From positions 128,001 through 192,000 of the forward strand of contig CAXGUD010000001.1 of the NCBI GenBank assembly GCA_964012805.1: a DNA stretch of 64,000 nucleotides, written 5' to 3'. A program made the translations under genes and the position numbers. The notes under the pieces were generated by a model, which ran no database searches, had not been told where the DNA came from, and saw only the letters and a list, made by a program, of their open reading frames with translations. The DNA is from an uncultured Bacteriovoracaceae bacterium (GTDB taxonomy: Bacteria > Bdellovibrionota > Bacteriovoracia > Bacteriovoracales > Bacteriovoracaceae). Below are positions 38,953-44,586 of the stretch, in pieces; position 1 is the stretch's first letter; the number at the start of each line of letters is the position of its first letter.

Positions 38953-41091
38953 TTATCTACATAAAGCAAAACCGGCCCCTCCTGAAGTCCCTTTAGTAAT
39001 TTTGCAGCCGTAACCACGACCATCGAACTTCCCTCCAAGAATGGCTACAATATCCCACCTCCCTATCTCATTGCAGGCTTTTGACTTATCTTTTTCGATA
39101 TCAGCAACTGTTACTGCCTGCCTGCCTATACCTGCGCAGCACGCCCTAGCTTTATTAATGCCGCTTCCTGTCGAGCAACGGACTTGCTTAGATTTACTCC
39201 AATCAATAGAATCAGAGCATTTATTAGAAATACATTTTTTTGGAGGACTACATTCATCATTTTTGTTGCATTCAACACAAGTATTGCTTCCTGTTTTACA
39301 AAAATTTGTAGTGCTAGTTAAACATGGATGAATGAAGCCAGTATCCTCATTCATAAATGTTTCAATAGCCCCCTGACAAGAAGCATTTAAAACACAGTAA
39401 TTTTTTGACTCTAAGAGGCAGTCCTTGTAATTATTTTGTTTATTTTGAAGCTCAACTGGTGTTTCGCTTCCGGTAACACTAATGGAGCAAGGGTTTCCGG
39501 AGTAGGAACAATTTGTAAAAAGGTCACTTGGGCCAGAACCGGTATCACCGCCTTTATCTCCAGCGTCCCCTGTAACTGTAGGAATAGCACTACCGTCGTG
39601 GACAAATTGAACCTCTGTGCAAATTTTCCAATTTCCGTTTTCTTTGTAAAGTGGAGCTGCTCGAAAGGCCATATAATGCTTAGTATCACCATCCCACCAG
39701 TTCTGCCAAGCTTTAAAGCTTACTTCTTTGCTACAAACCATTTCTGGAAACTTTTTACAATTAAAACCAACAGCTCCACTTACACTTTCTGAGGAGAATA
39801 GAAAGTGCTCATCACTTTGGTCACAGGTAGGAATCGGGTAACAGCCTTTCTCATCATCCCATGCAAATGTATCGTTAAAAAAGGTGCTACAAATTTTTCT
39901 GGCAAAAACTTTAGCCATTGTTTCTTTGGTAAGACCGTCAGAAGCAATATCAGATAGGGCTCCCTCGACAAGTCTATCAACTGGATTAGCAATATCTGGG
40001 TCAAAAAGACTTTTTAGGTAATTATGAACCCATTCCCTTGTTGCGACATATCCCTCTTCTGCATCCTCATCCGACCTGCTTAAATTAAAATCATAAAGAT
40101 CTGCTTTATTGAAATTTTCAATTTTAATCCTCTTAAAAGACGTTTTCCAACTTAAGTTTTCAATAGCTGTCGATGAAAATTCAAAATACTTAGATCCATC
40201 AAACTCAAGCCTAAAAAAGGGCTGCCCCTGAGGAGAGAGGTCAAGATTAAATATATTTTTTTCTTTTGTGTATAAGGTTGCCAAAGTCCCTTTATTACCA
40301 AGGGTTAATTTTGGAGTGGTATCTTCAGGTTCACTTCCAGAATTTGAAATGATTAAATCACCTTTAGTCAATTGATCTTTTGATGTTATTAACTCTGTAA
40401 CGGACAAATCTCCAGTATGATTTTGACCATTTTCAGAATTTTTTTCTAAGATAACATTTCCTGTAGCTTCAAGTGCTGTCTCTTGATTATCCTCTTTACT
40501 CAGAACAATAGAACGACATCTTTTTAAGTCGCTAAAATCACCATCCAAAGTTTGGCACGCTCCTGAAAGGAAGGTGTCACGGTCAGACATGCAATCTTTG
40601 ATAGCGGCTTTCCCAGAGCTGGAGACAAGATTAAGAAAAATTGGAATCTTTCTCACAATTTGCATCGACCTCAAAGGCTCTATAGTGACTTCAAAGTCCG
40701 CCCTACCCTTTGTATAATTTTTGATTTTCATTTTTGAAATTTTAAATTTACTGCTGCCTACACCGTAAGTTTTACCTGCTTTTATCGAGTCTGCTTTTTT
40801 GAAGGAGTTTGTAAAATTAATAGCGTTTATATCATCGCCCTCTCCGTGAGGACTTTTTCCACTAAAGGTATCGTCACAAACCTTTTCATTATCCAGGACA
40901 GAACGAATCGTATCTAACATTTTAAAAATTTCAGTTTCCTGATTTATTTTTCTAGCGAGACCTCCAGAGTTTTCAGCGAATTGCATGACTCCCAAACTTA
41001 CTACACCAAGGATTCCTGCGGCAATAAGAACTTCTAGAATTGAAAATCCTTTTTCTTCTTTAAAATTAACTCTTTTTAAAAATGAGTTCAA
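38953..41091 (-). CDS. giant type IV prepilin-like protein (paralogue 3) with Cys-rich C-terminal domains
   Basis: KG|FSILEVLIAAGILGVVSLG prepilin cleavage/methylation site; 712 aa. Confidence 0.85.
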   Translation of the reverse strand: MNSFLKRVNFKEEKGFSILEVLIAAGILGVVSLGVMQFAENSGGLARKINQETEIFKMLDTIRSVLDNEKVCDDTFSGKSPHGEGDDINAINFTNSFKKADSIKAGKTYGVGSSKFKISKMKIKNYTKGRADFEVTIEPLRSMQIVRKIPIFLNLVSSSGKAAIKDCMSDRDTFLSGACQTLDGDFSDLKRCRSIVLSKEDNQETALEATGNVILEKNSENGQNHTGDLSVTELITSKDQLTKGDLIISNSGSEPEDTTPKLTLGNKGTLATLYTKEKNIFNLDLSPQGQPFFRLEFDGSKYFEFSSTAIENLSWKTSFKRIKIENFNKADLYDFNLSRSDEDAEEGYVATREWVHNYLKSLFDPDIANPVDRLVEGALSDIASDGLTKETMAKVFARKICSTFFNDTFAWDDEKGCYPIPTCDQSDEHFLFSSESVSGAVGFNCKKFPEMVCSKEVSFKAWQNWWDGDTKHYMAFRAAPLYKENGNWKICTEVQFVHDGSAIPTVTGDAGDKGGDTGSGPSDLFTNCSYSGNPCSISVTGSETPVELQNKQNNYKDCLLESKNYCVLNASCQGAIETFMNEDTGFIHPCLTSTTNFCKTGSNTCVECNKNDECSPPKKCISNKCSDSIDWSKSKQVRCSTGSGINKARACCAGIGRQAVTVADIEKDKSKACNEIGRWDIVAILGGKFDGRGYGCKITKGTSGGAGFALCR

Positions 41092-41142
41092 ATCACATAC
41101 CCTTTAATTTTAATCAAAGTGGTCTCTTAAATAATCAACAAA

Positions 41143-43161: not shown

Positions 43162-43164
43162 AGT

Positions 43165-44586
43165 CTAAAACCCACAGCGGTTGACCGTCTGCGGTCCCTT
43201 TCCACACTTATAGCATTTACCAGTTCCACTATTTCCTGAAGCTGGCTTTCTATTAACACACCTCCAATCTGGAATTGTTTGACAAATAAATTTAGGAACA
43301 CCCCCATCTGAAAAGTCTTCCTTAACGGTCAAAAGCTCGTTTTCTCCACATTCCACATCTGGCTTACAAATACCGCCTTCCCATACAAAGCTTTTAAAAT
43401 ACCTTTGACACATATGTTTACCAACTGCTGCTACAATTGTTTTTTCCATTTGGTCATTTTTTATTTTGTCTATTGCGTCTTTTATATATTTATTGAAGAC
43501 ATCAGTTTTGGCCCTACTAAAGAGATAGGCTAAAGTTTGATAAGTCCACTGCCTAGTCGCAATCACTCCTTTCTTTGAACTTAATGATGATTCGACCAAA
43601 TCTTGATTACTTGAATCTATTATTAACTGTTCGAAAGAATCATCAGCATCTAAAACCAAATTATTTTTTTCGATCTTAAAATTTATTTTTTTACCCGTAT
43701 TCGTATTAATCTTTACTGATTTGAGCGTATTTTTAAAACCCATAAGGGTAAGGGCATCAGAACTTGATTTTAATGTCATTTGAACTTTATTGCTGGTTCC
43801 AACAACTACATTATTCTGAACGGCTAATTCATTTGAAACATTTTGATTTCTGGCCTTGGAATAACCACTGACTTTAATATCCCCTTTCTGTTGACCAGTA
43901 CCAGAAGACTTGATAACAACATTGTCTTTAGAGTTAATAGCAAAATCTTTTTCAGGGGAAGTTCTGATAGTTATTGATTTACAGTTTTTTTGATTTGAAT
44001 AATCACCTTCAAAAGAAATTTCGCAATTATCTCTCAGGTAAGAGTCTGTATTTGTAACACAATCATTTATTAATTTCGGATCTTTTCTTTCACCTTCCGG
44101 TATATCCTGTGGATTTAAATTGGTTTTTATTTTTAAAACTCTTTTTTCTTGAACAACTTTTTTTTCTTTTCCCGCGTACCTTTCAAAAACGACCTCTAAG
44201 TCTGATATCGATGTCTCTTTATTATAGTTTTTTAAATCTATTGAAAGGACTTTAACTCGCCCTCCGCCGGTGCCATAAAACTTATTCGTTTCCACTCGTC
44301 CAATTTTTTTTAAAGAAACTCCATCAATCGGGTTAAGACCCTTTAAATTCTCTCTACATTTTTCTTTATTTTGGAGACTTCCTTTAATTTGAGCCAAAAG
44401 CTGAAATATTTCTACTTTCTGTGAACTTCCGTAGGAAATATTGGTTGCATTTTGAATTGTTTGAAAAATGCCTAAACTCAAAATACCAATGAGCCCTGCC
44501 GCAACCGTGAGTTCAATAAGTGAGAACCCTTTTTCGCTTCCCATTGAAATCAGAATTTTATTGTTTTTTAACTTCTCAAATAACAT
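43165..44586 (-). CDS. giant type IV prepilin-like protein (paralogue 1)
   Basis: KG|FSLIELTVAAGLIGILSLG; 473 aa. Confidence 0.87.
   Translation of the reverse strand: MLFEKLKNNKILISMGSEKGFSLIELTVAAGLIGILSLGIFQTIQNATNISYGSSQKVEIFQLLAQIKGSLQNKEKCRENLKGLNPIDGVSLKKIGRVETNKFYGTGGGRVKVLSIDLKNYNKETSISDLEVVFERYAGKEKKVVQEKRVLKIKTNLNPQDIPEGERKDPKLINDCVTNTDSYLRDNCEISFEGDYSNQKNCKSITIRTSPEKDFAINSKDNVVIKSSGTGQQKGDIKVSGYSKARNQNVSNELAVQNNVVVGTSNKVQMTLKSSSDALTLMGFKNTLKSVKINTNTGKKINFKIEKNNLVLDADDSFEQLIIDSSNQDLVESSLSSKKGVIATRQWTYQTLAYLFSRAKTDVFNKYIKDAIDKIKNDQMEKTIVAAVGKHMCQRYFKSFVWEGGICKPDVECGENELLTVKEDFSDGGVPKFICQTIPDWRCVNRKPASGNSGTGKCYKCGKGPQTVNRCGF

Follow-up and report, generated by a model that had tools for sequence, protein, structure and literature searches.

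Three tandem prepilin paralogues of a Bacteriovoracaceae bacterium as a candidate heterotrimeric pilus-tip fiber

A stretch of 64,000 nt from an uncultured Bacteriovoracaceae bacterium (assembly GCA_964012805.1, contig CAXGUD010000001.1, positions 128,001-192,000 of the forward strand; hereafter the window) encodes at 38953..44586 three neighboring prepilin paralogues, each composed of a pilin head, a shaft and a Cys-rich C-terminal end. We find it fairly likely that this trio is the tip and initiation complex of a type IVa pilus, in which the three chains would form a 1:1:1 triple-β-helix fiber that carries adhesive heads and is capped by the one chain having Gln instead of Glu at position +5 of the mature protein (Gln5).

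Gene organization and sequence of the trio

The three open reading frames (ORFs) lie next to each other on the minus strand, encode 473, 672 and 712 residues (chains 1, 2 and 3) and are separated by 3 and 51 bp, exactly as described in the initial annotation of this DNA. Each chain possesses a charged leader that ends in Gly and is followed by 20-25 hydrophobic residues, as in class III signal peptides. The cleavage sites, EKG/FSLIE for chain 1, ETG/AALIQ for chain 2 and EKG/FSILE for chain 3, agree with the earlier assignment of a prepilin leader to every gene and of Gln to +5 of the middle one, whose Glu5-less chain is the predicted capping subunit. The Pfam N_methyl profile matches chain 1 with 21.4 bits (cut-off 21.2) and falls just below the cut-off for chain 3 (20.8), whereas the Gln5 chain 2 is unmatched. 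The public record of chain 1 (P0005) begins at Met15 and contains 459 residues, with an identical mature protein.

Pairwise alignment gives 25-28% identity over 409-462 residues, with E-values of 1e-40 to 3e-44 that are far past chance, and recovers the shared blocks previously noticed over about 400 residues. The invariant positions include E59/F61, C77, YG.G, C176, C188, C202-SI, G..ATR.W, C393, W402 and C407. Past residue ~410 the C-terminal parts are mutually unrelated (best blastp E-value of 0.91) and contain 5-10% Cys, again as claimed. The mid-region, initially termed Gly/Asn-rich, has 9-12% Asn and 6% Gly, so only the Asn part of that description stands; obvious Gly-rich fiber repeats, variable in length, are found in the shafts of relatives. 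Promoter and terminator counts are no different from chance, and contigs from four marine runs cover the stretch piecemeal, with no trustworthy rearrangement seen; no RNA data set was listed for it.

Table 1. Coordinates, in the window, of the trio, its parts and the linked flank
Feature	Position	Strand	Description
Chain 1 (P0001, 473 aa)	43165..44586	-	Glu5 prepilin; pilin head to ~190, shaft ~200-352, helical segment, Cys-rich end of ~60 aa
Chain 2 (P0002, 672 aa)	41143..43161	-	Gln5 prepilin, predicted capping subunit; pilin head, shaft ~189-345, Cys-rich head of ~260 aa
Chain 3 (P0003, 712 aa)	38953..41091	-	Glu5 prepilin, TTG start; pilin head, shaft ~197-358, Cys-rich head of ~300 aa
CAA codon, Gln +5 of mature chain 2	43096..43098	-	Conserved in the L022 and L043 orthologues
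Chain 1 shaft	43531..43989	-	Modeled inter-chain parallel β-helix; ATRxW motif at its end
Chain 2 shaft	42127..42597	-	From the 1:1:1 model
Chain 3 shaft	40018..40503	-	From the 1:1:1 model; 16-17 aa longer than the chain 1 and 2 shafts
Fast-evolving terminal domain of chain 3	38956..39261	-	32% identical to the L022 orthologue; Cys pattern conserved
Linked flank, not part of the fiber	44715..49467	.	Two UbiA-family genes, a DUF6311-like multi-pass membrane protein (46272-48002, -) and a small membrane protein

Predicted structure of the pilin head and the shaft

The structure of chain 1 alone was predicted by AlphaFold2 from a 66-row alignment, with a mean predicted local distance difference test score (pLDDT) of 70 and a predicted template modeling score (pTM) of 0.39; the single-sequence prediction (pLDDT of 34) was of no use. 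Residues 51-191 form a confident α/β globular head (pLDDT of 76-98), in which helix α1C packs on an antiparallel β-sheet as in type IV pilins. Its best fold matches are GspI, XcpV and GspK, with modest Z-scores of 5.0-5.2, and the pilin and pseudopilin matches overall range from 4.4 to 5.2. Residues 192-258 are extended and almost devoid of secondary structure in the monomer; they are followed by intra-chain strands (259-313), helices (345-396) and small Cys-linked hairpins. The ATRxW motif, which may correspond to the β-to-α neck motif of YadA-type autotransporters and phage fibers, sits between the β-shaft and a helix in the monomer model, and at the distal end of the interface in the trimer model.

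The three chains were modeled together by ESMFold2 at 1:1:1, using residues 52-412 of chain 1, 49-409 of chain 2 and 160-424 of chain 3, with alignments that pooled all paralogues. The model scores 0.86, compared to 0.22 for the best control, and contains 844-898 contacts, with a run agreement of at least 82% and a partner pLDDT of at least 73. In calibration, 116 of 157 solved pairs reached the mark, compared to 2 of 215 mismatched pairs; these numbers are only roughly valid for the present case. About 750 confident inter-chain contacts are spread over the whole shaft, and the interface follows residues 183-352 of chain 1, 172-345 of chain 2 and 174-358 of chain 3. The best pairs are parallel and cyclic (279-281 of chain 1 with 279-282 of chain 2; 292-295 of chain 3 with 265-267 of chain 2; 310-312 of chain 1 with 306-308 of chain 2): pairing steps from a strand of chain 1 to the following strand of chain 2, and likewise from chain 2 to the following strand of chain 3. 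We read this predicted pattern as a triple β-helix. The model has a meandering trimeric β-shaft like that of the Bdellovibrio mosaic adhesive trimer (MAT), with repeats that are clear in the relatives, and, in the model only, a β-rich trimerizing region next to the pilin domain like that of CofB and TcpB.

That the proteins are instead monomeric modular pilins, with mid-regions folding alone, is highly improbable. Residues 259-313 do form intra-chain strands in the monomer model, and the trio lacks a significant sequence match to a fiber family; against this, residues 192-258 are unstructured alone, the confident inter-chain contacts run along the entire shaft, and homologues carry S74, Gp34-trimer and YadA domains. 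The initial annotation had named monomeric globular mid-regions as incompatible with its proposal. The same proposal, a pilin-fiber hybrid assembled as a 1:1:1 heterotrimer, is upheld as to the pilin head, the shaft and the predicted trimer, whereas the preference for a heterotrimer over homotrimers is not: the model supports trimerization but does not distinguish the two, because only the 1:1:1 combination was run and the alignments pooled the paralogues.

Among other searches, those of the PDB by sequence gave matches confined to the pilin helix; PHROGs had no match for P0001, and tblastn with the relative P0047 had no phage match. Two sets of shaft candidates were discarded. Residues 249-327 were matched by VIA to T4 gp34 and to spike proteins with Z-scores of at most 3.9, inside the background, and Atlas feature matches (Shufflon_N at 0.77, phage hyaluronidase at 0.76) are below 0.9 and serve as leads only.

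Family distribution and the recurrence of triplets

A family profile matches 2,728 representatives at E ≤0.001. The family is present in 231 of the 237 genomes of the window's bacterial family and in 111 of the 201 phylum genomes sampled, most of these matches spanning the pilin head only. We read 120 regions, the first 20 of which had been chosen as looking clustered and the rest by match rank or to cover the remaining matches; the +5 residue was then unseen. This gave 25 intact three-gene sets, including the window. Exactly one member lacks Glu5 in 21 of them, two members in 3, all three in 1 and none in 0; the initial annotation had suggested a survey for triplets with exactly one such member. 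For the first 21 sets, of which 17 have exactly one non-Glu5 member, the p-value is 4e-4 assuming independence, which overstates the case as kin are not independent. One gene is divergently oriented in 3 of the 25 triplets, and one triplet has a 525-bp gap. Excluded from the count were L021 and L042 (which repeat the ORFs of L022 and the window), L121 (like a type II secretion system, T2SS), L115, L128/L129 and all pairs, as well as two triplets inferred over contig breaks (G171 and G009), both of which fit the pattern.

Single genes of at least 450 residues keep Glu5 in all cases sampled (29/29, with the length cut-off picked afterwards), and separated long pairs are mostly Glu5/Glu5. A rule that singles always keep Glu5 was rejected, since it is true of long singles only. 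Because long homologues occur singly, a homotrimeric form probably exists in the family. The initial annotation had counted homologues occurring singly with conserved C-termini as adverse to its proposal, and long singles do occur.

Pfam scans of 43 proteins (32 family members) detected S74 in three, namely that of L037, together with YadA_head, and both genes of L040; a weak Collar match was found in L030 in the same set. Further scans detected S74 in 1 of 76 and in 9 of 45 proteins, one of the nine with Gp34_trimer. S74 is borne by singles or by a Glu5/Glu5 pair, and single-gene members often end in this trimer chaperone, whereas none of the 43 scanned members of intact triplets has S74. In two triplets (L030 and L034), a segment like a phage tail collar terminates each of the three chains, seen as one Pfam Collar match (E-value of 0.001) and otherwise by eye.

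Several loci show other arrangements. At L135:5494-14156, six tandem family genes make up two Q,E,E sets. One of these genes has a Hint domain at its end, as does, by a weak match, a triplet member of L136. L128:2243-19998 and L129 break the triplet pattern with five giant pilin-headed non-Glu5 genes of 803-1591 residues (mature), and the four scanned have RCC1 repeats. In L051 and L055, a long Glu5 and a long Gln5 member are oriented toward each other with two membrane-protein genes between them, and in G135 a third Glu5 member lies ~40 kb away from such a pair, possibly as a dispersed triplet. L025, L027, L028 and L029 represent a conserved short triplet type with fiber-like motifs in all chains, none of this type being found in the window's genome. 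Six scattered family genes (L108-L114, G014:C16) share a near-identical N-terminal leader but are of unequal length, a pattern suggestive of swapped tips or repeated duplication.

Matched shaft lengths and the origin of triplets

The length of the shaft, measured from the last Cys of the head to the Trp of ATRxW, is 145, 146 and 162 residues in the window. Other long triplets have 225/219/217, 207/186/186 and 224/200/203 (the last inferred over a contig break), while 15 other chains range from 175 to 323. The mean within-triplet range is 17.5 for the four long triplets, compared to 74 on shuffling all chains (p = 7e-5) and 50 on shuffling triplet chains (p = 0.0015). Two rows were lost in parsing for this comparison, and one row carried a wrong label, its chain being a Glu5 one. 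The lengths are thus matched although identity within a triplet is only 24-37%.

In a quick tree, triplet chains cluster by locus, with support values of 98, 99 and 99 (Shimodaira-Hasegawa-like approximate likelihood ratio test, SH-aLRT). A single clade of six non-Glu5 chains was rejected by the approximately unbiased test (p-AU of 9e-6; LG+G4, pilin head without +1 to +5, the group having been named after the first tree). A FastTree of 191 rows resolves eight triplet lineages as exclusive or near-exclusive clades (support of 81-97), seven of them with one non-Glu5 member. These phylogenies suggest at least seven independent triplications, each with a separate loss of Glu5; independent triplication is the simplest reading of the sequences, with gene conversion as the alternative.

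The trio could also supply three alternative tips, each gene making its own CofB/TcpB-like homotrimeric fiber or the chains mixing promiscuously. In line with this, the long single-gene members all keep Glu5 and presumably homotrimerize, S74 occurs in singles or a Glu5/Glu5 pair, and the 1:1:1 model is blind to the difference. Yet a Gln5 homotrimer would, judging from known assembly, place two Glu5-less subunits inside the filament. Neither exactly three genes with one non-Glu5 member nor shafts of matched length at such low identity would be predicted by separate homotrimers, and the separated long pairs are mostly Glu5/Glu5. We consider separate or mixed homotrimers unlikely.

Pilus machinery of the host genome and neighboring genes

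The host genome is 100% complete by marker genes, and the organism probably comes from a predatory group, a lifestyle inferred from its taxonomy. Annotation by eye located a type IVa cluster of pilB, T, C, A, D and M-Q on contig C22 and a T2SS with four Glu5 pseudopilins of its own and a GspK-like gene on C50; a TadA-like ATPase is also encoded. A PF07963 search of the genome returned only PilA, the four Gsp pilins and two genes of the trio. Searches of the genome for PilX_N and S74 found none, with positive controls; that for PilY1 was blank, with controls equally silent, and is evidence neither way. No further copy of the trio family was found in the genome. As no other type IVa minor pilin was found, the trio, which lies away from any pil operon, is the sole candidate found for this role and probably the tip and initiation complex.

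The DUF6311-like protein of the flank has an Atlas score of 0.99, the family being on 13-21% of members. Similar UbiA and DUF6311-like genes flank the long triplets of L022, L024/L048, L044, L045 and L047, and many single-gene relatives have multi-pass membrane and sugar-pathway-like genes as neighbors (by eye; few with Pfam support). The flank is possibly a glycosylation module, and the fiber possibly glycosylated.

This setting bears on another explanation, in which the heterotrimer is real but no prey adhesin of the type IVa pilus: it would prime or ride a different type 4 filament (T2SS or Tad), stay anchored in the membrane or act as a glycosylated surface coat or sensor. It would fit the separation of the trio from the pil cluster, its position beside UbiA and DUF6311-like membrane genes, the similar surroundings of its relatives, the presence of a T2SS and a TadA-like ATPase in the genome, and the T2SS pseudopilins as the closest folds of the head. 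However, the T2SS is already supplied with pseudopilins of its own, the leaders follow the GFxxxE and not the Flp-like type, and the type IVa system would otherwise be left without minor pilins. Such a role is quite unlikely in our view.

Two further proteins lie nearby. An 816-residue protein (36302-38752, minus strand) with no Pfam or NCBIfam match contains a Pro/Thr/Lys repeat linker and is directly downstream of the trio in L022 too; the protein at 33832-35016 (plus strand) belongs to the transglutaminase-elicitor family (PF16683, E-value of 4e-36).

Variation of the C-terminal heads

A genome of the same genus conserves the gene order and Gln5, with 74-96% identity in the ends of chains 1 and 2. 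Only the last ~110 residues of chain 3 drop, to 25-44% identity, while keeping the Cys pattern. The hypervariable heads of the initial annotation were accordingly given up, as variation is limited to the chain 3 tip and the end of chain 1 measures just ~60 residues. A syntenic trio at 78% identity is found at L021, and a metagenomic contig conserves chains 1 and 2 at ~50% identity; the chain 3 head has one homologue only.

The tip of chain 3 has a weak, sub-threshold Pfam match to APT (E-value of 0.0017), a family with a C-type-lectin-like fold; by sequence, this is a lead toward a glycan-binding tip and nothing beyond. A PDB sequence search with the chain 3 tip gave nothing useful, an H-type-lectin sandwich was matched neither in that search nor in Pfam scans of the trio, and the tips of chains 2 and 3 do not align. 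A relative, P0018, matches the end of chain 2 at 82% identity in its last residues, compared to only 20-40% elsewhere, which suggests head exchange between paralogues.

Discussion

We propose the following assembly of the trio. The class III leaders, seen in the sequences, would be cleaved by PilD. The three shafts, one per kind of chain, are predicted to wind in the periplasm into a parallel triple β-helix that ends at ATRxW. By analogy with known tip complexes, the α1 helices would then enter the filament as its first three subunits, with the Gln5 chain uppermost, because no overlying subunit needs its Glu5. PilA would be added below, and the disulfide-rich heads, chiefly the variable end of chain 3, would be displayed for adhesion, plausibly to prey, which is the weakest step. 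As for origin, a single Glu5 gene that made a CofB-like homotrimer may have been triplicated in several lineages, with one copy losing Glu5 each time.

Several observations weigh against this proposal. Near cousins of true partners also pass the structural test (10 of 12 colicin pairs), and the pilin heads and the helices after ATRxW have no confident inter-chain contacts in a model from which α1-N was removed and in which chain 3 lacks most of its head. Foldseek, suggested in the initial annotation as a comparison with tail fibers, did not bear out the likeness: the window proteins had nothing at E ≤0.001 in the PDB or among viral models, where the top rows, an S74 protein and tip-fiber proteins, are weak (E-values of 0.004-0.006). 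Sequence searches of the three window proteins gave no significant match to any fiber family. Four of the 25 triplets (L025, L027, L028 and L029) have two or three non-Glu5 members; they are short, and three of the loci together with two L027 chains form one clade. Glu5 is also missing from about 21 lone genes of shorter length. In the broad tree, 12 of the 23 other triplet loci tested are not resolved as exclusive clades, and L027 is only partly so; duplication or gene conversion alone could be the source of the matched lengths and the locus clades.

Beyond the trio, we tentatively suggest a Bdellovibrionota-wide family of pilin-headed, phage-type fibers that replaces the PilVWX/PilY1 tip and has shifted at least seven times from a one-gene homotrimer to an obligate three-gene heterotrimer with a re-invented Glu5-less cap, so that one retractile pilus would bear a single triple-β-helix fiber having three different prey-recognition heads. 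A 2026 preprint, in the part available, names the type IVa pilus as a candidate for the first prey contact of predatory Bdellovibrionota (10.64898/2026.07.08.737194). The trio family is a concrete candidate for first prey recognition and for the role of this pilus. If the proposal is true, the conversion of homotrimeric pilus tips into hetero-oligomers capped by a Glu5-less chain could be followed in this family as a natural, replicated experiment, and its shaft would be a rare heterotrimeric triple β-helix. A search largely without subscription papers found no published account of paralogous pilin-fiber triplets or repeated Glu5 loss.

Comparison with known systems

In MAT of Bdellovibrio, a related predator, a meandering trimeric phage-like fiber carries variable tips (PMC10769870); the words 'pilin' and 'heterotrimer' are absent from the text and two supplements of that paper. 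MAT fibers have their own N-terminal domain and an S74 or NS74 cap, whereas the trio has a prepilin N-terminus and no S74 in its proteins or genome; the S74 of its relatives is a likeness to MAT. MAT fibers have a shaft of this kind in common with the trio without being pilins; against the initial annotation, a pilin-headed trimer with a β-rich stalk is already known from CofB and TcpB. Fusions of pilin and S74 (IPR012902-IPR030392) were catalogued previously, with 29 proteins in Dataset S1, as predicted peptidases and not as trimeric fibers (PMC8179133). They resemble the single-gene relatives, and the parts of that source available to us do not describe the triplets or the Glu5 pattern.

In Myxococcus, also a predator, the Kil (Tad) tips KilL/M/N are heterotrimeric, disulfide-rich minor-pilin tips encoded in three-gene clusters and differing in prey efficiency (PMC12075869). 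Unlike the trio, they belong to a Tad system, are built of TadE/F/G-type pilins and are shaped like a spearhead; a triple-β-helix shaft is not described in the accessible text.

CofB of the enterotoxigenic Escherichia coli pilus CFA/III and TcpB of the Vibrio cholerae pilus TCP are type IVb minor pilins that consist of a pilin domain, a β-rich trimerizing region and a distal domain, and form a trimeric tip initiation complex (PMC9565799, PMC6048534, PMC8179133, as far as these were accessible). Each is a homotrimer from one gene of a type IVb operon, and a secreted protein docks onto its H-type-lectin tip; by contrast, the trio comprises three paralogues outside any pil operon in a genome with a type IVa cluster, one of them without Glu5, with a longer shaft and three unrelated Cys-rich ends. 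CofB and TcpB are absent among the matches listed in PDB sequence searches. GspI/J/K and PilHIJK (PilV/W/X) form a hetero-oligomeric tip whose cap subunit lacks Glu5, according to the available parts of the sources (PMC10191384, PMC8179133). The trio shares with them the Glu5-less cap and a head whose top fold matches are GspI, XcpV and GspK. Unlike them, its chains are paralogues of one lineage-specific family with a common fiber shaft; the chain 2 cap is not an ortholog of PilX or GspK, being paralogous to its neighbors, with a single non-Glu5 clade rejected and no PilX_N in the genome. Altogether, the trio would work like CofB/TcpB and GspIJK and is a member of neither.

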